From positions 1-61,742 of IMG/VR virus record IMGVR_UViG_3300042503_000814: a stretch of DNA of 61,742 nt; one strand, given 5' to 3'. A model generated the notes under the pieces. The model worked only from the letters and a program-made list of their open reading frames with translations. It made no database searches and was not told where the DNA came from. This document shows positions 3,286-55,914 of this stretch, piece by piece (the first letter of the stretch is position 1; the number at the start of each line of letters is the position of its first letter). The stretch is from a virus. Its lineage: Duplodnaviria > Caudoviricetes. The translations under genes were made by a program, and so were the position numbers.

Positions 3286-3397
3286 CCGAACCTCCTTGTG
3301 TAAACGCATGCTCCGGTGGGAACGCATGCGGGACATCGAACCTCCAGAGAATCTCCGATACCGTCTCGTCAACTAACAAATCTTTCTGATCGTCCAT
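3182..3397 (-). CDS. Hypothetical protein (MDDQKDLL...)
   Basis: GGAG SD; overlaps both neighbours. Confidence 0.4.
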   Translation of the reverse strand: MDDQKDLLVDETVSEILWRFDVPHAFPPEHAFTQGGSDEHRKVSFWRRLWSWLNAPIGFRRPAVAPRDHQP

Positions 3398-4427
3398 GGC
3401 GTCTCCCCAATTCCTTGCGAAACATTGACTTGATCCAGCCGTTGAGCTTGTCGTTGTGAGCAGCCCACTGAACGTAGTGATCGGGCAACTCGCTGAGTTT
3501 GAAACCGGCGTACTTCCCCTTGAGCGGGTTGTTGTAAGTACCAACGGAGCGAACACCCTTCCATGTAATATCAACGTCCTTGCCGTGGATGCGGCCCTCG
3601 CCGCGACCTTGGGTGTTGCGGCGCATCTCTTCGATCAGCTTGGCACTGGCGATCCGCTCGGCCTTCTTTGCCGCCTCTGCCAACGCCAGTGCGTCTATCT
3701 CTTCCTGCGAGAGTGGAGACTGCGCCGCTGCTTTACGGACTTGCTCTTTGACTTCCTCGTCGTCGGAGGTGCAGAACATGTCCACGGCTGTGATGACTGT
3801 GTGGTCAAGCGTTCCTGCTGTGCAATCAACAATCTTGAAATGAGGTTTATCTGAACGCGCGATTGCAGCAATTCTGTCGGCAGGTGTGAGAAGATCCTCG
3901 CCGTCAACGACACCGGGGAGAGGGCGAGTGGCTCGTCCAACGCACTGCAACCAAAAACTTCTGGATCGGGTTGGTCGGGCAAGGATGAGGGTTGCGGTCG
4001 GTGGGTAATCGAATCCCACGGCGACGACTTGGCAGTTGACAAGGACCCTGGCTTGTCGGGACTTAAAGGCTGCAAGTGCATCGGCTCGCTCCTCATCGGG
4101 CATGGTGCCCCAGACACAGACGGCTGGGATTCCGTAGTTCCTGGTCAGGTACTCAGTCGCACCCTTGGCTGCGAACACACTGCCCGTGAACAGGACGGTC
4201 TGTCCCATCATCTCCTCGGCGGTGATCATGCAGGCGCGGTGCAGATTGGCTTCCTTGTTCAGTTCCGCGGCGAGCTTCGTCTGGTTGAAGTCGCCGCCGA
4301 CAATGTTGACCTTGCTCAGATCCAGTGACTCAACCTTGCTCAGCTTGCAAACAGGGGGAACTGACCATCCGTTGGCGATGGCCCACTGGAGGTCGTAGTT
4401 ACAGACTGACTCTTCGTAGAACTGCAT
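3369..4427 (-). CDS. SF2 helicase, C-terminal (RecA2) half
   Basis: Motifs V/VI: GFDYP, QCVGRATR; own TAAGGAG SD. Confidence 0.85.
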   Translation of the reverse strand: MQFYEESVCNYDLQWAIANGWSVPPVCKLSKVESLDLSKVNIVGGDFNQTKLAAELNKEANLHRACMITAEEMMGQTVLFTGSVFAAKGATEYLTRNYGIPAVCVWGTMPDEERADALAAFKSRQARVLVNCQVVAVGFDYPPTATLILARPTRSRSFWLQCVGRATRPLPGVVDGEDLLTPADRIAAIARSDKPHFKIVDCTAGTLDHTVITAVDMFCTSDDEEVKEQVRKAAAQSPLSQEEIDALALAEAAKKAERIASAKLIEEMRRNTQGRGEGRIHGKDVDITWKGVRSVGTYNNPLKGKYAGFKLSELPDHYVQWAAHNDKLNGWIKSMFRKELGRRHGRSERFVS

Positions 4428-4930
4428 GCGTTACTCCTTAGCATTGGCTTGCCATCCATCCGAAATGGCGTAGCCGTGAACCCAGCAACCATTGCTCCCT
4501 GTTGCTGGAAGAACTCCAACATCTCAATGACCGGCTCGCTGCACTGCATGTGTGCTTCGTCCACAATGACGAGCGAGAACCCGCTGAACCGCTTGTATCT
4601 CTTCTCGCCCTGGCGGCTGGACAGCAGCGTCTGCTTCGATGCGACCACCACCTTGGCTGGCCAGTAGTCCCGCTCCGCAACGAAGTCGGCCATCTCAATG
4701 TCGGGATCGGAGTCGGTGACCTGACGCACCTTGTCAGCGGCCTGCCAGACAAGCTCACGCATGGGGGCGATGATCAGCGTGCGGCCCGGGATGCGATCCG
4801 CGAGCGCCGTGAAGATGACAGTCTTGCCAGCGCCAGTGAACAGGCCAACGAGCGTGGACTTCACACCGCGGCGCATTGCGTCCAGCAGCGATTCGATCAC
4901 TTCAGTTTGGTAGGCGCGCAGTCTGAGCAT
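4340..4930 (-). CDS. SF2 helicase, N-terminal (RecA1) half
   Basis: LRAYQ Q-motif, TGAGKT, DEAH, TATP. Confidence 0.88.
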   Translation of the reverse strand: MLRLRAYQTEVIESLLDAMRRGVKSTLVGLFTGAGKTVIFTALADRIPGRTLIIAPMRELVWQAADKVRQVTDSDPDIEMADFVAERDYWPAKVVVASKQTLLSSRQGEKRYKRFSGFSLVIVDEAHMQCSEPVIEMLEFFQQQGAMVAGFTATPFRMDGKPMLRSNACSSTKSQSVTTTSSGPSPTDGQFPLFAS

Positions 4931-4961
4931 GAAACGTCCTTGTGTATGAAGAAGCCCGGGG

Positions 4962-4988
4962 GAGGGCGGGTCGGAGGTTCCCGCCCTC
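4962..4988. other. GC-rich hairpin between ssb and helicase
   Basis: GAGGGCGGG/CCCGCCCTC perfect 9-bp stem. Confidence 0.5.
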
Positions 4989-5018
4989 AACCCCAGGCGG
5001 CGCGGAGCAGCGCGCCTT

Positions 5019-5363
5019 CTAGCGGAACTCTGAAACGAACTCTTCTTCGCGGGCACTGTCCTTCTTCCCGCCAACAAGCTGGATGCCATTGACGTTGAGG
5101 ACAACCTTGCTCCTCTTCTGGCCGTCACGCTCCCAGACCTGCTGATCAAGCTCCCCTTCGACAAGGACAGAGGTGCCCTTGTTCAGGTAGTTGACGACAG
5201 CGCCACCCTTCCAGTATTCGCAATCCATGAACAAGACCTTGCCCTCGCGGTAAGGGTTGTTCACGGCCACGCTGAACTTCACAACATCCTTCTCGCCAAC
5301 GCGACGAATGTCGGGGTCAGCAGTGATGTTGCCCATGAGAATCGTCCTGTTGTAACTAGCCAT
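5019..5363 (-). CDS. ssb: Single-stranded DNA-binding protein
   Basis: N..ILMGN.TADP, KG..VLVEGEL, acidic tail. Confidence 0.93.
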   Translation of the reverse strand: MASYNRTILMGNITADPDIRRVGEKDVVKFSVAVNNPYREGKVLFMDCEYWKGGAVVNYLNKGTSVLVEGELDQQVWERDGQKRSKVVLNVNGIQLVGGKKDSAREEEFVSEFR

Positions 5364-6015
5364 TGGTCACTACCTCCTTGGTTTCCCAGCATCGAACAAA
5401 CTCAGCCTTGCAACGGTCGTACACATCCCGTGCAATCGCCTTCTCCCGAAGACGCAACTCCACTGTCTTCATCACGTTCACCGCAGTGCCACGGTCTTCC
5501 GCGTCTGCGATGGTCTTCTTCCACTCCTGCTCCCACTGCAGGTTGCGAGCGGAAGCAGTCGGCTTCTGCGGGGCGCGTTGCGGAGCGGACTCCACCTTCA
5601 CGCTGTCGCCGTCGTCGTCAGCCTCACCAGAGAAGCCTCCCGTGAGAGCCATCAGCAGGGTCCGCTTGGCGTAGGTGCAAGCCGCGCCGAACCCCTGCAT
5701 GTCACCTTTGGGGTTCACCAGAGGTGCGATGCCCGTGAGGTATTGCCCCGTCTTGTGACGCAAGGTTCCAACCAGCACCCACTGACCGGCCACCAGCCCC
5801 GGCCGGAAGTCCGGCAGAGCAAGGCCGTGCTTGGTCAGCGGGCCACGCAGCGAGTCGCAGCAAGTGGCGTAGGACGAGAACCTGCTTTTGAAGTGCGGGT
5901 TCGCAGCATCCAACTCAACGTGCTTGTACTCAGCCTGTGCCTTTGCCAGTGCCTCAGTGAGTGCGCTGGTATCGGGCGACGATGACGGTCCCAAAATGTC
6001 ATGGCTATCAGTCAT
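5356..6015 (-). CDS. erf: ERF-family single-strand annealing protein
   Basis: NPHFKSRF, QGFGAACTYAKR, DDDG motifs. Confidence 0.9.
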   Translation of the reverse strand: MTDSHDILGPSSSPDTSALTEALAKAQAEYKHVELDAANPHFKSRFSSYATCCDSLRGPLTKHGLALPDFRPGLVAGQWVLVGTLRHKTGQYLTGIAPLVNPKGDMQGFGAACTYAKRTLLMALTGGFSGEADDDGDSVKVESAPQRAPQKPTASARNLQWEQEWKKTIADAEDRGTAVNVMKTVELRLREKAIARDVYDRCKAEFVRCWETKEVVTNG

Positions 6016-6866
6016 ACTGTGATTACCTCCTCCTCCTGACGCTTCGCCCACTGGGGAAACTGAAGCTCCGTGATCTCACCGGCATCGGCCGATTCGTACA
6101 CGCCAGTCTCCCTGCGAAGGCGAACCTCCTCCATCACGCGGGTCATACGCAGGCCCGCCTCCTCAACGATCTCTGTCGGCAGATAGAAAACGTGGACACC
6201 GTACGGGGCCATCGTCTGGACGAAGACGAACGGCATGCGGAAGTGCGGCAAGCCCACAGCCTTGGCACCCTGGCAGTACAGCCATTCCTGCTCCGCGTAC
6301 CCGAAGTCCATCGCACTGCGGTAGACCTTGTCCCAAGTGGACGAGGTCGTCTTCAGATCCCACCACAGCGTTGGAGTGCAGCCGTCCGGTCGCACCTTGC
6401 AGCGGTGGCCGTTCAGTTCAAAGAACACCGACACCTGAGTCTCAGTGGTCTGCTCCACCAGAGCCTTGGCGGCAGGGTTCTCAAGGAGATGCGTCAGCAT
6501 CACCTCCAGCTGCCATCCCTCTTCCGCGTTGCAGTCGATCAACCCCTTGGCCTCGGCCTGCGACTTCCACTCGTCGTAGGCTTTCCCCCGGCGGTGGCCG
6601 TTGCTGGCCAGCACCTCGGCGGGAGGGATGGCGAGAACGTCACTCAACTTCTTTCCCTCACAGACAGCCGTGACGATGGTGTCAAACTTGCTGCCCGTGC
6701 GGGTTCCGGCGTTCCCCCCAAAGAGGGAGTAGCCTTGATCCATCCACCGCTGCGCCTCGCCGCCGTACTTGGCGACAGAGTGCAGGTAGGACCGGCCAAG
6801 AAAATCGTTCTGCGAGTGGTAGTCGGCATTGCTCATGCCCACCACCTTCCGTGGCAAAGTAGTCAT
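6012..6866 (-). CDS. RecE/ExoVIII-like PD-(D/E)XK exonuclease (DUF3799-like)
   Basis: MSNADYH, CKVRPD, DLKT, Y-x-x-Q-x-x-x-Y; GGAGGT SD. Confidence 0.88.
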   Translation of the reverse strand: MTTLPRKVVGMSNADYHSQNDFLGRSYLHSVAKYGGEAQRWMDQGYSLFGGNAGTRTGSKFDTIVTAVCEGKKLSDVLAIPPAEVLASNGHRRGKAYDEWKSQAEAKGLIDCNAEEGWQLEVMLTHLLENPAAKALVEQTTETQVSVFFELNGHRCKVRPDGCTPTLWWDLKTTSSTWDKVYRSAMDFGYAEQEWLYCQGAKAVGLPHFRMPFVFVQTMAPYGVHVFYLPTEIVEEAGLRMTRVMEEVRLRRETGVYESADAGEITELQFPQWAKRQEEEVITV

Positions 6867-6883
6867 CCGTACACCTCCTAGTG

Positions 6884-6903
6884 AAAAGCCCCATCCGTGG
6901 GGC
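6884..6903 (-). terminator. Short hairpin plus U-tract just before the recE-like RBS (possible attenuator)
   Basis: GCCCCA-cgga-TGGGGC-TTTTC. Confidence 0.4.
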
Positions 6904-7085
6904 GAACCGAATCCCTCCGAAGAGAACGGCGGAACAAAACCGCCGCTCGGCCCAACTGTCCGAGAGCGAGAAGGGTGAGCAGAGTGCCCACGCCGTGGAG
7001 AAAAATGACGACCACTAGCAAAGCTAGGACCGCCCCCCTTAGAATTCGGGAGAGCCACCCACTTGGGGGGCCGCTTCGACCGATC

Positions 7086-7108
7086 CTATCCAATTGAGCT
7101 AGGGGTGC
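7086..7108 (-). other. 5' fragment of a tRNA-Arg-like gene; candidate attP core
   Basis: GCACCCCTAGCTCAATTGGATAG reads as acceptor strand plus D-arm; similarity stops abruptly; next to integrase. Confidence 0.75.
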
Positions 7109-7121
7109 CTTGTGCGAGCCG

Positions 7122-7149
7122 AGTATAGCAGAGGGCTTGTGGATTCCAA
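7122..7149 (-). promoter_or_regulatory. Sigma70-type promoter with extended -10
   Basis: TTGGAA-N16-TATACT with TG-n immediately before the -10; points into the tRNA fragment. Confidence 0.65.
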
Positions 7150-7204
7150 CGGAGGGGGTAGTCTCACCCCCCTCACCCAGATCCACAAAATTTCCGATAA
7201 CAAC

Positions 7205-8026
7205 ATGACTGTGCGACAGTTCGCGGAGGCTTACGCCCTCCAGTCGGGGGCTAGCCCCGGATACCGTGAGCAACTCGTTGTGATGGCAAAGCGGCTCCCT
7301 TGGGGGGTGGCCGACTTGACCGTCGCCAACATCGATGCGTACCTGACGAATGCTCTCGGTCATCTCGCCGCCTCCACGGTTCACAACCATCGCCGGATGC
7401 TGTCCACCCTGCGACGAGCCGCCCTGCGCGACGGCCTGCTGGTGGACGATTGTACACGCCCGATCCGCCGTGTCAAGCACACGCTTCCGATGGTCCGCGC
7501 TTGGACCCATGACGAGATGAGAACACTGCTTGCGGTGGCCTCTGAGATGCCGGGGGGTACGCTGTACTGCCCGCACAGAATCCTGCTGCCCGCATGGATT
7601 CTTGTGGGCTACAGCAGCGGGCTGCGGCTCGGGGATCTGCTGGCCATTACCTACGATTCCCTTCGCGGGGATCGCTTGGCTACGGTGCTGCAGAAAACTC
7701 GCCAGCCGCATGTCGTCGTCCTTGACGCTAATGCCTTGGAATCCATTCGCTCCCTACCTCGTCGCGGCCCGAAGATTTTCGGGGGACTGGTTGGAAGGAG
7801 CCGGATCATAGTGGCCATGCGCGCACTTGTCAAAAGTGCAGGTCTGACTGGCTCAGGCAAATACCTGCGTAGAAGCAGTGCAACTTACGCCCAATTAGCG
7901 GGAATGGACGCAACTGGACACCTGGGTCATTTGACCCCGGGCATGAAACGGCACTACCTAGATCCCGTGATTCTGTCGGATCTGAAGCGGGCGGTGCCCA
8001 GCCTAGAACTGGCTGGGCAACCCTAG
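7205..8026 (+). CDS. int: Tyrosine recombinase/integrase
   Basis: GLRLGDL (R), QKT (K), YLRR (H-x-x-R variant), LGH, RHY (Y). Confidence 0.9.
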   Translation: MTVRQFAEAYALQSGASPGYREQLVVMAKRLPWGVADLTVANIDAYLTNALGHLAASTVHNHRRMLSTLRRAALRDGLLVDDCTRPIRRVKHTLPMVRAWTHDEMRTLLAVASEMPGGTLYCPHRILLPAWILVGYSSGLRLGDLLAITYDSLRGDRLATVLQKTRQPHVVVLDANALESIRSLPRRGPKIFGGLVGRSRIIVAMRALVKSAGLTGSGKYLRRSSATYAQLAGMDATGHLGHLTPGMKRHYLDPVILSDLKRAVPSLELAGQP

Positions 8027-11000
8027 CATCTGCATCGGGTCCATCCCGGCCTGCGCTTTTTTCTTGTCCCGGGCGCGCTTGGCGGCTTCGTTCTGGATGA
8101 TCTTGTAGAGCAGGTACATGTCACGCTGTTCCTTCGGCATGGACCGCAGGACATCGTCTGGGACAGTTATGTTTTCGTAGGTGCGGACGCCGGGGGTGGT
8201 GGACAGGAGTTTGTTCAGCATGTCCCGGGCGGCGAGTTGCTTGGTCCGTTCGCTATCAACGTCCGTGAGCTTCAGCCCTGCCAAGAGGTTGAATGCTGCC
8301 TTGGAGTATCTGTCTGCTGGATCAAGCCGGTCGTCACGCAACTGCCGGTAGGTTCCGATGGCACGGGCACCGAACGGCAGCAGGTTGGTCGCAAGCTGCT
8401 CCAGCGGCCTGCCCATTGGGCCAATGTCTTGCTCTAGGACTGAGTAGAGGTCTGACAACTGTCTGCCGGAATACAACTGCCGGTTGGTGATGTACTCCAG
8501 TGGGGCTTTGATCAGCGGGTTAGCCATGCCCAAGATGTTGGAGCCAGTGCGCTGAACGGCGTCGGCCACCCTTGCGGAGGCCGTGGCCCCAACACCAAGT
8601 GATGGCAAGCCAAACGTCGATTCCCACGGCAAGTCTACGTTGGTCAGATACCGGCGCAGCCCCGGCTTTGGGGAGCCGCCAAGCAGCGAAGTCCACTCCG
8701 CTGGGAGCGGGATGGCTGCGGATTGCCGAAGATGCTCGGGCACCATGTTGCCTTCGGTAGGCTCGGTGCCACGGGTCACCGCCCGTATCGACTGGCCCTG
8801 CAGTCCGCCAGGGTTGTAGACTAGTCGGTCGAAAATGCTTGGCATGATGTTTTTCTGGAAACTCCAGAACGGCATCGCGCGCTTCATAAACGTCCGGTCG
8901 AAGCCAGTGAAAGCCTCCGGCCGATAGTCCACGTTCACCATGCGGTTGAGGTCACCAGCCACGCCAGGATCGACACCCTTGCGTAGCTGATTGATGAACG
9001 TGCCGTTTCGCAGCATGTCCTCAACGGTCGAACCAATTGCGTCATTAGCAACTAGTAGCGGGTTGGTGTTGCGAGAAGGTGCCTCGCGAGTCCAGCCGAC
9101 TCCTCGCATGCTGGTAAAGTCGTCTACAAACTGCCCCCACGTTCGCTCGGGATTGTAGAACGAGCGAGCCACGGAACCCCCGGTAGAAGCTCCTGGGTAG
9201 TTGCCGCGAATCTCCTGCTCAGGACGACCAGACACGTCATCAATGAGGTTGCCAGTGGAGACTTGTTGCGCACCAGACAGCCGGATGTATCGCTCTAGGA
9301 TCTGATCGTCGGTCAGGCCCTCAAAGGCAGGAGTGCCTCGCAGTCGATTCACTAGCGCGTCGTAGTTTCCGCGGCTGGCCTGAAACGCCGCCCAATAGTC
9401 AGAAGGACTGAAAGCCCCGTGTGCCGCAGCATTGATCATGCCGCTGTAGGAGTTACGGACATGGAACGCGGGCGATGCAAGTGCCCCAACCTTAAAGGCA
9501 TTGGTCAGGTTATCGATGCCCTTCAGCAATCCCTGCTCGGGGAGCGCGGCCCGCGTTTGCGGGGCGAGCGTGGCGAGGGCATTGATGTATCGCTCATTGA
9601 TAGAAAAGTTGGTGGGGTCTTGGCCTGTGCGCGCCTGCCACATCTGACGGAAGTTCCGCTCGTCATAGCCAAGGCGCTGAGCGGCCTCGGGCAACGCAAT
9701 GTTTACACCACCAGCGGAAGCTCCTGCCGGGACATTCTCCACCAGCTGCATCATGCGATTGGTGAGAACGTCCGAGTTAGCCTGGGTGCGCGCCTGCCCC
9801 CGGCGATACTGCCGCACGTTCTCCCAAGCGGGCGTGTCGTAGATGCCAGTGCCAGTCTCAGCGAACTGCGTGTCCGCAGATCGAATGATGTCTGCAAGGT
9901 CGCGGTAGTTACGCCCAACGCGAGCGGTCAAGGCAGTATCCATTGCGGCCCGCTCAGCAGGAGTGGCAGCAATGTACTCAGGGGATTGACGAACGGAATC
10001 TTCAATGCCTTGGTACACCGACTGCCCAGGCTGTTTCCGGCCGATGGCATCAAATGCTGAGTCCAAGATCATGCGAGCCTGCCGCTCGTTGGCACCAATG
10101 AGAGACTGTTGCAATCCGCGGGAATCAATCACGCCCCGCCTGCCGTTAGCGATGGCATCGGCAAAGTCCTGCGGAGTCGTTCCGGTAAGCGCGTTGAACG
10201 TGTCCTGCCCGCCAACAACGTCTGTGTATTCGGGGCGGCTGCGGCCAAAGTTGTCGGCCGTGTTGATGAAACGCGCATCTCGCCCCCACGGCCGCTGGGT
10301 GGCAACGCCTCCACCCGGGATGTCGGGCGGAGCAGGACGCTCAAACCATTTTGTCTGGCGCGGTATCCAACCCGTGTCTGAGTTGGCGCTCGCCCACTGC
10401 GGCGCAGGCAGTCCCCGCGATGCAGACTCTGCTTGCGCCTGCGGACCAAGGTTAGTCATGGAGTCACGGATGATCCGAAACTCTGGGGTGTTCTCCATGA
10501 CCCAGTCGGCTACCGCATCGCCGCTAGTGCGGGGGAGGCTCGGGCCAAAAACGGTGGGCTGAGACTCTACCCAGTTGTTTAGCGCACGCTGGAGATCGGA
10601 GCTTTGGAACTGTCGAAGCGTTCTCGGGATAGCCTCGCCCGCCAGAGGCCCAGAAGAGACAACCTCGGGAACCTGGGCGCGCTGGGCGTTAAACACCGCC
10701 ACGGCATCCTCGCCATCGACCCGTTCTACAGCATCACGCGCAGCCCGATGGGCCATGCGGTGATCCATCTGGAGCGCATTGGTCAACTCCAGGTCGTTGC
10801 TGACCACTCCAAGAGGCCCAGCCGCGGGGCTAGTAAGCGAAGCGGCTGTGCGAGTGATGTTGCCAATGACTGGAGCAGTCTTTGTCCAGTTCCCCAGCGC
10901 ATCGGCGTTTCTGGCAACCGCATCGCCAAACGCGCCGCCGTCAACGCTGAAGCCGATGTTTGTGCCCGGGACGCGGAAGTCGTCCAAGACACCAACGGCT

Positions 11001-46726: not shown

Positions 46727-47554
46727 ATGGCAATTCGCCGTATACGTGCCGCCAAGCCTCTGGGTGTCATTCTGCACCGGGGCGTGTCTCCTTATGACGG
46801 TTCTCCGTACGTGGTGATCATGCCACTGCGGAATTCCAAGAATAAGAAGACCGGCTCAATGCTTCAGACCTATATTCTTAGGGCTGATATGCATCCAGTG
46901 GTGGCGGTACGCGAAGAACAAGATGGGGCCATCTGTTTCAACTGCCCCATGCGTGGTCTGGTCGGCTTTCCTAAGCGGACACCGGCCAACGCAAAGCGTA
47001 ATCCAAAGCGTTGGCGTGCGTGTTATGTCAACGTCGGGCAGGGGCCAGCAATGGTCTACGGTGCCTACATGCGTGGTCGGTACGTTGAATACGATCCGAT
47101 CATGCATGATCAGTACATCCGTGATCGCAAGATCCGGTTCGGTACATACGGGGAGCCGGTGCTGATACCGCTTGCCCTGGTGCAGCATCTGGCCGGTCTT
47201 TCAGACGGCTGGACGGGCTACACCCATGCGTGGAGCAACCTGACCTACGCTCCATACAAGCAGTTCTTCATGGCCAGTGTCCATGGTCTTACGGGGCCAT
47301 GGTCACGGGAACATGCGAAGTCTCTTGGCTGGCGTACCTTCCGCACTATGCGGGGAGGTGAGCCTGCTGCTGATGAAGTCTTGTGCCCAGCGTCTTTGGA
47401 GGCTGGCCATCGTCTTAGCTGCCTGACTTGCAGGCTGTGCGACGGTGCCGGTGTCCGCAAGATCGGCTTGGCTATGCGTGATGTGTACATCCCCGGGCAT
47501 GGTGGCAAGGCGATTATGACCGCTGTCGCCAACCTGCCCATTCTCCAAGCGTAA
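46727..47554 (+). CDS. GP88-like Cys-rich (possibly Fe-S) protein
   Basis: N.KTG.M.QTYIL, C..CP, CYV, R.G.YG.P, GYTH.W, CPAS..C..C.LC. Confidence 0.65.
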   Translation: MAIRRIRAAKPLGVILHRGVSPYDGSPYVVIMPLRNSKNKKTGSMLQTYILRADMHPVVAVREEQDGAICFNCPMRGLVGFPKRTPANAKRNPKRWRACYVNVGQGPAMVYGAYMRGRYVEYDPIMHDQYIRDRKIRFGTYGEPVLIPLALVQHLAGLSDGWTGYTHAWSNLTYAPYKQFFMASVHGLTGPWSREHAKSLGWRTFRTMRGGEPAADEVLCPASLEAGHRLSCLTCRLCDGAGVRKIGLAMRDVYIPGHGGKAIMTAVANLPILQA

Positions 47555-47563
47555 AGGCGCAGC

Positions 47564-47755
47564 ATGGAAACGATGAATGCGGAGACGATTGGACGCAAGG
47601 CCACAGTGGTCGGCCCAAACCGGCGATCGTTGTCGGACAAGAAACTGCTGTCCGAAATCAAACGGCTGAAGCGTGACTGCGCCAGTTTTGGCGGGGCCAT
47701 GCTGCTGGCCGCTTACCAAGCCGATGCCGAGCGGCGTGGCTTAAAGGAGGTATGA
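47564..47755 (+). CDS. Early hypothetical protein
   Basis: Coupled to next gene. Confidence 0.6.
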   Translation: METMNAETIGRKATVVGPNRRSLSDKKLLSEIKRLKRDCASFGGAMLLAAYQADAERRGLKEV

Positions 47756-47985
47756 GCGTGGAATACACACTGACAGACGCCAGGTTGCGGTCGCTGAAGG
47801 CAGCTGTGACCCGTGCCCAGAACAAGCAGGATTGGCGGGCCGTGATCGCGGCATGCGAGAAGGCAGACCGGACGTTCCGAGAGCAAGGATACCCGGACTG
47901 CTGGTCAGACTTTGAGCGACACAAGGGTGACGCAGAGTTGTCCCTGAAGTTCAACTACCTGCTCATAGATAAGGGGTGCTGGTGA
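47752..47985 (+). CDS. Early hypothetical protein
   Basis: AAGGAGG SD; GYPD.W..FER. Confidence 0.7.
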   Translation: MSVEYTLTDARLRSLKAAVTRAQNKQDWRAVIAACEKADRTFREQGYPDCWSDFERHKGDAELSLKFNYLLIDKGCW

Positions 47986-55051: not shown

Positions 55052-55138
55052 ATGTTTGCGATGAGTGAGACGATGGACTTTCTGATCGGTGGCACCGGAG
55101 TGCTGCTGCTGTTGTGGTGGAGTTCTGGGAGCCACTGA
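55052..55138 (+). CDS. 28-aa hydrophobic peptide
   Basis: GGAGGT SD; fills gap. Confidence 0.45.
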   Translation: MFAMSETMDFLIGGTGVLLLLWWSSGSH

Positions 55139-55140
55139 CC

Positions 55141-55914
55141 ATGCTGTACGGATATGCCCGTGTTTCTACGGACAAGCAGGAGAACAGTGCTGATGCCCAA
55201 GCTATCCGTCTTAGGGCATACGCTGAGCAGTCAGGCTTGGAGTTCGGGGGCGTGTTCGTAGACGAGGATCAGTCGGCGTACAAGATCCCACTGAACAAGC
55301 GAAGGCAGGGCAAGGTACTGTGGGACAAGTTGCAGGAAGGCGACATCGTTGTCTTCTGTACGTTCGACCGTGTCTTCCGGTCGGTGCTGGATGCGGCGCA
55401 GACCCTAGCCAAGTGCAAGGAACTTGGGTTTCAGCTGCGGTTTCTGGACGACAGCATCGATGTGACGACCATCCAGGGCGAGTTGTCGTTCAACCTCCAG
55501 TCTGCTGTCGCCCAGTTTGGCAGCCAGATTGCAGGCCAGAGGCAGCGTGAGAACCAGGCATACCTTATCGCAGCCGGTCGCCCGTGCGGGAAGTTCCGGC
55601 CGTTCGGATGGGTTGCCAAGGACAAAGCGTTCGTTGTCTACCGTCCCGAGCGAGAGATCGGTGACATGGTGGTGGCTATGCGCAAGGCGGGCCGGTCCTT
55701 CACGGACATCTGCCTGCACCTGTGCAAGAAGGAACTGCGCAAGCCAGCCAACAAGCATGGTGTCAGGGGGTACTACGGCCTGTCAGACACAGTTGCTCTG
55801 CATCGGGCAGCGTCAGCTGGATACCCAAAGATCCGGCCAAGACTTTCGCAAGCGCAGTGGCGCGACGAGATGCAGCGCGTAGAGAAATCTCATGCGACTC
55901 AGCCAGCGCTCTGA
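55141..55914 (+). CDS. Serine recombinase (resolvase catalytic domain plus partial recombinase domain)
   Basis: YGYARVST..Q, DRVFRS, PFGW. Confidence 0.9.
   Translation: MLYGYARVSTDKQENSADAQAIRLRAYAEQSGLEFGGVFVDEDQSAYKIPLNKRRQGKVLWDKLQEGDIVVFCTFDRVFRSVLDAAQTLAKCKELGFQLRFLDDSIDVTTIQGELSFNLQSAVAQFGSQIAGQRQRENQAYLIAAGRPCGKFRPFGWVAKDKAFVVYRPEREIGDMVVAMRKAGRSFTDICLHLCKKELRKPANKHGVRGYYGLSDTVALHRAASAGYPKIRPRLSQAQWRDEMQRVEKSHATQPAL

Follow-up and report, generated by a model that had tools for sequence, protein, structure and literature searches.

The phage studied here probably integrates into its host through the 5' part of a tRNA gene. The window, i.e. the whole stretch of DNA that was analysed, corresponds to a complete virus record in IMG/VR; it is 61,742 bp long, has about 60% G+C and carries direct terminal repeats. 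The minus strand at positions 7086-7108 reads GCACCCCTAGCTCAATTGGATAG, a 23-mer identical to bases 1-23 of tRNA-Arg(ACG) and proposed, on the grounds of this exact match and of its conservation, as the core of attP. Crossover is likely to take place in the D-loop, the prophage thereby supplying both the promoter and the start of the host tRNA.

The first-pass annotation had read this segment as the acceptor strand and D-arm of a tRNA-Arg that stops abruptly. This observation is confirmed, and the coordinates and genes given with it proved correct. The match extends over 23 of 23 bases and identity ends at base 23, past which the window reads GATCGGTCGAAGC where the host tRNA has AGCATCGGTCTACGG; the TCGGTC that persists after this point is a remnant of the anticodon stem. 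The 23-mer covers the 5' part of the tRNA and bases 24 onward differ, so that a block of the 3'-part type is absent. It is unique in the window even when up to three mismatches are tolerated, and with the same tolerance none of 100 dinucleotide shuffles gave a match. ARAGORN found no tRNA gene across the window, and Rfam (E<=10, positions 6000-8200) returned four weak unrelated matches and no tRNA. A complete cloverleaf, and with it a functional tRNA gene, is thus absent at the 23-mer.

Comparison with bacterial tRNA genes, from which a host had been expected to emerge, gave matches, and the refuting outcome named in the first-pass annotation, a 23-mer unmatched by any host tRNA, did not occur. 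The scan for the exact 23-mer used one genome per species and yielded at least 120 loci. The 23-mer opens a tRNA-Arg recognised by ARAGORN in 115 of the 120 genome loci listed (114 with the ACG anticodon, one with TCG); the other five comprise two tRNAs cut by the locus end, one broken tRNA and two isolated 5' fragments. Planctomycetota lineages account for 77 of 80 record titles among the matches listed, the three others being Opitutales, Acidobacteriota and one bacterium without lineage. Each of the four complete chromosomes among these matches holds a single copy. Judging from the 23-mer matches, the host is probably a planctomycete and a member of the Pirellulales. The site thus yields a host prediction for an uncultured group of phages encountered repeatedly in lake metagenomes: 20 of the lake-water runs listed contain half or more of the words sampled from the phage stretch. 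One tRNA-Arg-like gene, in locus L105 (G003:C210, about 6281-6303), combines the 23-mer with a TCG anticodon loop and stops after the variable region; it receives no ARAGORN call and looks like a pseudo-tRNA or another junction.

The tyrosine integrase that had been placed about 100 nt from the segment is encoded at 7205-8026 (plus strand, 273 aa), and its start lies 96 nt from the 23-mer in divergent orientation. It matches PHROG 1 'integrase' with an E-value of 3.4e-16, and Pfam PF00589 under the cut-off (E 2e-4). The catalytic residues R141, K164, R222, H242 and Y251 are kept in 10 family members, and the first His of the HxxR box is replaced by K, R or G. The protein is devoid of an extra N-terminal arm-binding domain; among solved structures it has six weak sequence matches, the nearest being lambda Int and Brujita gp33. 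The window also encodes, at 55114-55914 (plus strand), a 266-aa small serine recombinase with a Pfam Resolvase N-terminal domain (E 4.7e-29), a second phage recombinase that could resolve multimers or invert a segment.

The TG-n-TATACT promoter reported 13 nt upstream of the tRNA start was recovered by motif scan as a predicted sigma-70-like promoter, TTGGAA-16 nt-TGcTATACT, at 7149-7122 on the minus strand, its -10 box ending 13 nt before tRNA base 1. The scan retrieved two such sites per 1.1 kb against 0.2 expected. Of 16 distinct contexts of the Arg type, 15 have a promoter-like site with a -10 box ending 9-13 nt ahead of base 1, the site of L038 being poor, and several relatives with another site type (type B, below) carry a promoter-like site at a comparable place. 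A promoter scan of the host loci was too noisy to be of use, with scores of at least 9 in 22 of 102 loci and no consistent distance. An inverted repeat, GGGGGT-AGTCTC-ACCCCC, occupies positions 7154-7171, where it separates the integrase start from the -35 box; a G-run/TACCC motif recurs at this position in relatives, and the repeat may be an operator or part of the integrase leader.

Conservation was assessed among relatives of the Arg type. Nineteen relatives of the integrase were found in IMG/VR, at 49-98% identity, and 19 virus contigs hold the exact 23-mer, 17 of them as a fragment and two within a whole tRNA. Region 6700-8100 had no blastn match among 50,697 deposited phages. An alignment of the window and 17 virus contigs, anchored on the 23-mer and amounting to 17 distinct contexts, has as its invariant columns from -60 to +60 solely the 23 bases. 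The invariant block begins at the mature 5' end of the tRNA, the preceding base being variable, and ends at base 23, the next base being G, A or T. Ungapped comparison with the window gives 15-33% identity for either flank in L021, L022, L025, L030 and L038, five contigs with integrases at 54-72% identity. Within the 23-mer even the third-codon positions of an overlapping ORF are frozen; invariance at these synonymous positions implies that the constraint acts on the DNA.

The overlapping ORF is small, hydrophobic and conserved, runs in frame with the 23-mer on the minus strand (6878-7093) and has an uncertain start, which in the window is an in-frame TTG inside the 23-mer, with no ATG. Its motif W-x-I-[LIV]-R ... 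LGQ[LF] is conserved, and in 20 of 21 contigs the frame from tRNA base 1 runs into it without interruption. Immediately before the 23-mer, 12 of 18 contigs have an ATG, which extends the ORF (6878-7111 in window coordinates, minus strand) to a product beginning MAPLAQLDR; the window has AAG there, and the ATG is missing from five other contigs as well. A leaderless or near-leaderless gene may thus begin near the predicted transcript start, with its first part overlapped by the attP core. Further downstream on the same strand, a GC hairpin followed by TTTTC (6903-6888) represents a weak terminator or attenuator, predicted by scan and conservation, before the exonuclease gene. On its own the hairpin, the small terminator of the first-pass annotation, is not above chance (one found against 0.8 expected), but it is kept in relatives with one compensatory change, CCCC/GGGG to CCGC/GCGG, and its nucleotides are conserved though the ORF frame across it differs between families. 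The T-run is absent in L016 and L018. The recE-erf-ssb-helicase operon is present as described, starting with a PDDEXK (DUF3799) exonuclease as its first large gene (6012-6866, minus strand, relatives 55-63% identical). An ERF annealing protein, an SSB (5022-5363) and a helicase in two ORFs, recognised with Pfam and PHROGs, follow on the same strand within 3369-6051.

The same arrangement extends to the wider integrase family. A profile search with the integrase gave 32 virus loci, and in 20 of 20 family loci inspected an element resembling a tRNA start lies 49-105 nt from the integrase start in divergent orientation. Five of these elements are the Arg 23-mer, 14 are tRNA-Val-like and one, which reads GCGCCCGTAGCTCAATTGGATAC, is a different Arg-like start. 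The Val-like or type-B element consists of GGGCA(A/G)CTAGCTCAGTTG followed by a variable 5-mer (n=14). Site types track integrase clades in the tree: the window clade comprises 12 Arg-type integrases with 98/100 support, and two Val-type clades are present in the same tree. In metagenomes, 112 of 121 matches of the Val-like 26-mer, in 120 loci, open tRNAs, 84 of which are Val-CAC; read from sequence, the Val-like element is a genuine tRNA start when the D-stem continues normally. None of 401 sampled Planctomycetota genomes contains the Val-like 18-mer, hence Val-type phages probably have other hosts. Two oddities were seen among tRNA-Val genes of metagenome contigs. In L289, L327 and L333 a tRNA-Val(CAC) is normal up to the anticodon loop (...TTCACAC) and then gives way to at least about 150 nt of conserved non-tRNA sequence, which could represent an intron, or else an insertion into the anticodon loop. 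In L225, L306 and L329 a complete tRNA-Val(GAC) is nested between the 5' and 3' parts of a second tRNA-like gene, the 3' part being the T-arm and acceptor, in the setting of an AT-rich tRNA cluster.

The structure of the sites suggests a place for the strand exchange. The type-B element is an inverted repeat around a 7-bp spacer: in L198 it reads GGGCAGCTAGC / TCAGTTG / GTTAGCTGCCC, and 10 of 11 bases agree between the arms. Right arms vary between phages while the left part and the spacer are constant, so that exchange is expected in the spacer or to its left. The window site follows the same plan, CTAGC / TCAATTG / GATAG, with weakly symmetric arms (6 of 10 bases; inner arms 4 of 5), and its conserved block stops with the last base of the right inner arm, 5 nt past the spacer. 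From this symmetry, the 7-bp overlap proposed for the window is TCAATTG at 7091-7097 (minus strand), corresponding to tRNA bases 12-18.

We infer the following reaction. The small tyrosine integrase would recombine the phage 23-mer with the host tRNA-Arg(ACG) gene by strand exchange in the D-loop at TCAATTG. Because the phage carries the 5' part of the gene, the tRNA body would end up downstream of the prophage. On the integrase side, the junction would connect the phage promoter and phage bases 1 to about 15 with the host remainder, giving a whole tRNA gene to be transcribed from the phage promoter. The other junction would place the host tRNA promoter and a 23-nt stub in front of the small ORF, the hairpin and the exo-erf-ssb-helicase operon. 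If attP restores the tRNA gene from the phage end, an exchange of promoters follows by geometry. The D-arm crossover of the first-pass annotation fits the 7-bp spacer with its inverted arms, and the rebuilding of the tRNA under a phage promoter fits the exact start, the divergent recombinase, the promoter and the invariance of the segment. Against both stands that no attL, attR or other junction of the window's subfamily was found in the genomes or metagenome contigs searched.

The search for integrated states covered several sources. An attR pattern (-10 box, 13 N, 23-mer, host continuation) had no match in metagenome contigs. Contigs of four lake-water runs over positions 6000-8200 bridge the site in each run, with neither a joint nor a loose end at 7086-7108; these contigs drop rare variants, and the bridging says nothing about lysogens. 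Used as a single protein at E<=1e-10, the window integrase found nothing in 401 Planctomycetota genomes, an insensitive search in which six candidates were scored per genome. The tblastn queries, i.e. the integrase, exonuclease, ERF, small ORF and a 1222-aa protein of the window together with the integrase of phage L032, gave no match in 120 tRNA-Arg loci, nor in nine further loci of G001-G003. The 23-mer followed by a base other than A does not occur in 400 Planctomycetota genomes besides G001, the centre of that search. Profile searches reached further. In the order of G409, which holds a MAG titled Pirellulales, homologues were detected in 84 of 381 genomes, the best relatives being about 35% identical to the window integrase; in the order of G406 (Planctomicrobium), none of 371 genomes gave a match at E<=1e-40. 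A tRNA is absent beside the chromosomal homologue at 10 of the 12 top loci. In several genomes of the Pirellulales-titled order (G440:C92, G413:C36 and G476:C347) the homologues occur as two or three adjacent same-strand copies, an arrangement reminiscent of recombinase-in-trio elements.

Indirect cases were nevertheless collected. In G001, the two copies of a 25-nt direct repeat (TT plus the 23-mer) lie at a distance of 5953 bp from each other. The one upstream breaks off at base 23, just where the phage elements do, and is a mere stub; the one downstream opens a whole tRNA-Arg. This is, at the level of sequence, the footprint expected of an element entering on the 5' side of a tRNA. The 5.95-kb island between the copies (L166, G001:C31, 2291-8268) encodes two RAMP-superfamily proteins and a DUF7689 protein and holds no integrase; it may be defence-type cargo left at the tRNA-Arg. 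A lone stub like that of G001 is found in G002 beside a sulfatase-like ORF, named by eye from its translation. The G002 ORF upstream of the tRNA-Arg (L168) was considered as an integrase relative and showed no similarity. A 5'-side stub also occurs in an AT-rich unrelated organism (L264, 3650-3770), where a direct repeat of about 35 nt, made of 6 upstream nt and the first 29 nt of tRNA-Lys(CTT), lies 80 nt before the whole tRNA-Lys(CTT).

The metagenome contig L252 encodes an integrase of the family (39-46% identity, E 1e-42 to 1e-60), which clusters with a Val-type clade (84/74 support) and starts 49 nt from a whole, divergent tRNA-Val(CAC). The first 23 nt of this tRNA are those of the L198 phage element, and on its 3' side lie an ordinary 467-aa integrase and a DUF3987 gene; the tRNA may thus be chromosomal and occupied from either side. 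The contig extends only 340 nt past the family integrase, and these match none of the phages, and no promoter was recognised on the contig. L252 could alternatively be an element carrying a whole tRNA, as is the case of phage L032.

In L032, a whole tRNA-Arg(ACG) lies 105 nt from a divergent homologous integrase that is 33% identical to that of the window; a search for relatives with the L032 integrase returned L032 itself only. The genome G471 holds an integrase 43% identical to that of L032, at the end of a region with phage-like genes and 150 nt from a piece of tRNA-Arg(ACG) without bases 1-23. Its intact tRNA-Arg is on another contig and is followed by an XRE-type regulator homologous to the post-tRNA regulator of L032 (31% identity, E 7e-8). 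G471 is thus lysogenic for an L032-like phage, a distant member of the family, which integrated with the usual polarity and supplied the 3' part. Its junctions share bases 24-50, which span the anticodon loop and not the D-loop. The junction flanks matched nothing among 120 host loci, and three relatives of G471 have the homologous flank gene with no neighbouring tRNA, so the empty site is not reconstructable. That a distant family member is a prophage at tRNA-Arg(ACG) speaks for the proposed attachment site; the usual polarity of this lysogen and the failure to find an attL or attR of the window's subfamily in the genomes and contigs searched count against integration on the 5' side. Three layouts are thus found beside homologous integrases: a whole tRNA in L032, the 3' two-thirds in the G471 phage (bases 24-76 with a decayed D-arm) and the 5' third in the window. 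Selection presumably acts on whichever part of the tRNA remains perfect, which in the window lineage means bases 1-23 together with the promoter. This series offers a testable route for a change of integration polarity and sublocation.

Two other origins of the 23-mer were considered. It is quite improbable that it is a private lox-like or dif-like site for multimer resolution or circularisation, its likeness to a tRNA being a matter of ancestry only. Such a site would agree with the small recombinase devoid of an arm-binding domain, with the direct terminal repeats of the genome, with the failure to find a lysogen in the genomes and contigs searched, and with the nearly palindromic 11-7-11 layout of type-B sites, which adjoin the gene as loxP adjoins cre. 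However, it needs neither exact host identity over bases 1-23 amid randomised flanks nor a promoter 9-13 nt upstream, and the identity of the 23-mer to the start of a single-copy host tRNA means that a host counterpart exists. Moreover, relatives in the family are chromosomally integrated (G471, and the homologues in 84 of 381 genomes), and resolution could be left to the serine resolvase of the window. A decaying phage tRNA-Arg, whose first 23 bases were retained as a leader, as ORF codons or as a promoter-proximal element, also appears unlikely. The whole tRNA-Arg of L032, at the same place beside a homologous integrase, the TCGGTC kept by the window and the reading frame, open from base 1 in nearly all contigs and often preceded by ATG, speak for it. 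Yet protein coding leaves the invariant synonymous positions unexplained, and the ATG is missing from the window and five other contigs. As a leader, the RNA has an unremarkable fold (z = -1.31, not significant), and this function would not maintain identity to the host tRNA. Furthermore, other integrase clades carry different tRNA starts.

The first-pass annotation had gone further and proposed that integration itself acts as a regulatory switch, the uncoupling of the operon from the phage promoter taking the place of a repressor. Integration on the 5' side, as preferred here, would by geometry part the phage promoter from the early operon, and the same promoter would have to stay active in the lysogen to serve a single-copy tRNA. 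The lack of a cI-like repressor, on which the proposal leaned, was reproduced in that Pfam and PHROGs recognise none in the 20 ORFs scanned; this is weak evidence of absence, as most small ORFs are unannotatable and a repressor may simply go unrecognised. The relatives L032 and G471 do have an XRE-type regulator next to the site. The operon would pass from one presumably constitutive promoter to another, that of the host tRNA; in both states it would be preceded by the same hairpin, which lacks its T-run in L016 and L018, and no off state is evident. The switch is consequently not upheld, and a combination of integration with such a switch is given little credence. Elsewhere in the window, a divergent pair of ORFs at 47245-47985 (a minus-strand ORF of 151 aa and a plus-strand ORF of 77 aa) coincides with a switch in gene orientation and GC skew; its layout is repressor/cro-like, and Pfam and PHROGs recognise nothing there.

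Integration through the 5' part of the tRNA would define a mirror-image phage family, obliged to bring a promoter for an essential single-copy tRNA. Expression of the host tRNA-Arg would be tied to an early promoter of the prophage, and the host tRNA promoter would pass to an operon for recombination and replication. A compact integrase without arm-binding domain, acting on a site of about 30 bp, would in addition become available for the Planctomycetota, a phylum with few genetic tools. A broader proposal is that a family of lake Planctomycetota phages integrates through the D-loop upstream of single-copy tRNA genes and takes over their transcription, and that one ancestral tRNA borne by these phages decayed in opposite directions within a single integrase family. 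This is put forward tentatively and is rather doubtful; if true, the polarity of tRNA integration would be an evolvable trait and not a rule.

In the textbook case, an element that targets a tRNA gene contains the 3' part of it and leaves the gene under its host promoter, and the sublocations distinguished by Williams in 2002 (anticodon loop, T-loop and 3' end) reportedly all keep the 3' part of the tRNA. The window site resembles a classical tRNA attP in that a tyrosine integrase adjoins a tRNA-identical segment that runs from a symmetric loop to an end of the gene and allows the gene to be rebuilt. The classical block reaches the 3' end, whereas that of the window reaches the 5' end and its loop is the D-loop, so that the element must bring a promoter. 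The layouts of L032 and G471 share with the window a homologous integrase and, in the same place and divergent from it, a segment derived from tRNA-Arg(ACG); they retain the whole tRNA and bases 24-76, respectively, whereas the window retains bases 1-23 only, its 3' part having decayed. Brujita gp33 is a small tyrosine integrase that reportedly lacks an arm-binding domain and uses a simple site. The window integrase matches it marginally (PDB 5vfz, E 0.004), and target and layout are unrelated.

Other systems replace a gene start or preserve a tRNA by unusual means. The dusA-specific integrases reportedly target the 5' end of their host gene (Farrugia et al. 2015, PMC4482086); the element likewise has to replace the gene start, but the target is protein-coding and the integrase family and hosts are others. 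In the tRNA-dependent lysogeny of mycobacteriophages, the attB site lies over a tRNA gene that is complemented by another tRNA gene, encoded by the phage (Guerrero-Bustamante and Hatfull 2024, PMC10865867). The likeness lies in an attB over a tRNA gene and an unusual way of keeping tRNA function; there the tRNA is not rebuilt, whereas the window has no tRNA gene and its geometry would rebuild that of the host.

The closest precedent is found in Klebsiella pneumoniae, where islands with integrases of clade I.d integrate upstream of the tRNA gene arg2. In the passages available of the preprint describing them (10.1101/2020.11.02.365908), this 'D-loop sublocation' is termed novel, next to the classical anticodon loop, T-loop and 3' end, all of which keep the 3' part. 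The general rule on the 3' part invoked in the first-pass annotation is thus correct and has these islands as its exception. The literature searched contained this preprint alone on islands upstream of a tRNA D-loop, no paper on attachment sites of planctomycete phages and nothing on a tRNA 5' half in attP with a promoter. The window site resembles the arg2 type, as presented in those passages, in its composition of acceptor 5' strand, D-stem and D-loop, and by geometry the element would come to lie upstream of the tRNA. The Klebsiella elements are islands of Gammaproteobacteria with integrases of the usual N- and C-terminal domains, and the same passages make no mention of a promoter supplied by the element; here a lake phage of Planctomycetota has a 273-aa integrase and a promoter-like site of its own. 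As far as the literature was searched, this would be the first case for a phage family and for the Planctomycetota. What would be new beside the known D-loop islands is the conserved promoter borne by the element and the occurrence of both polarities in one family.
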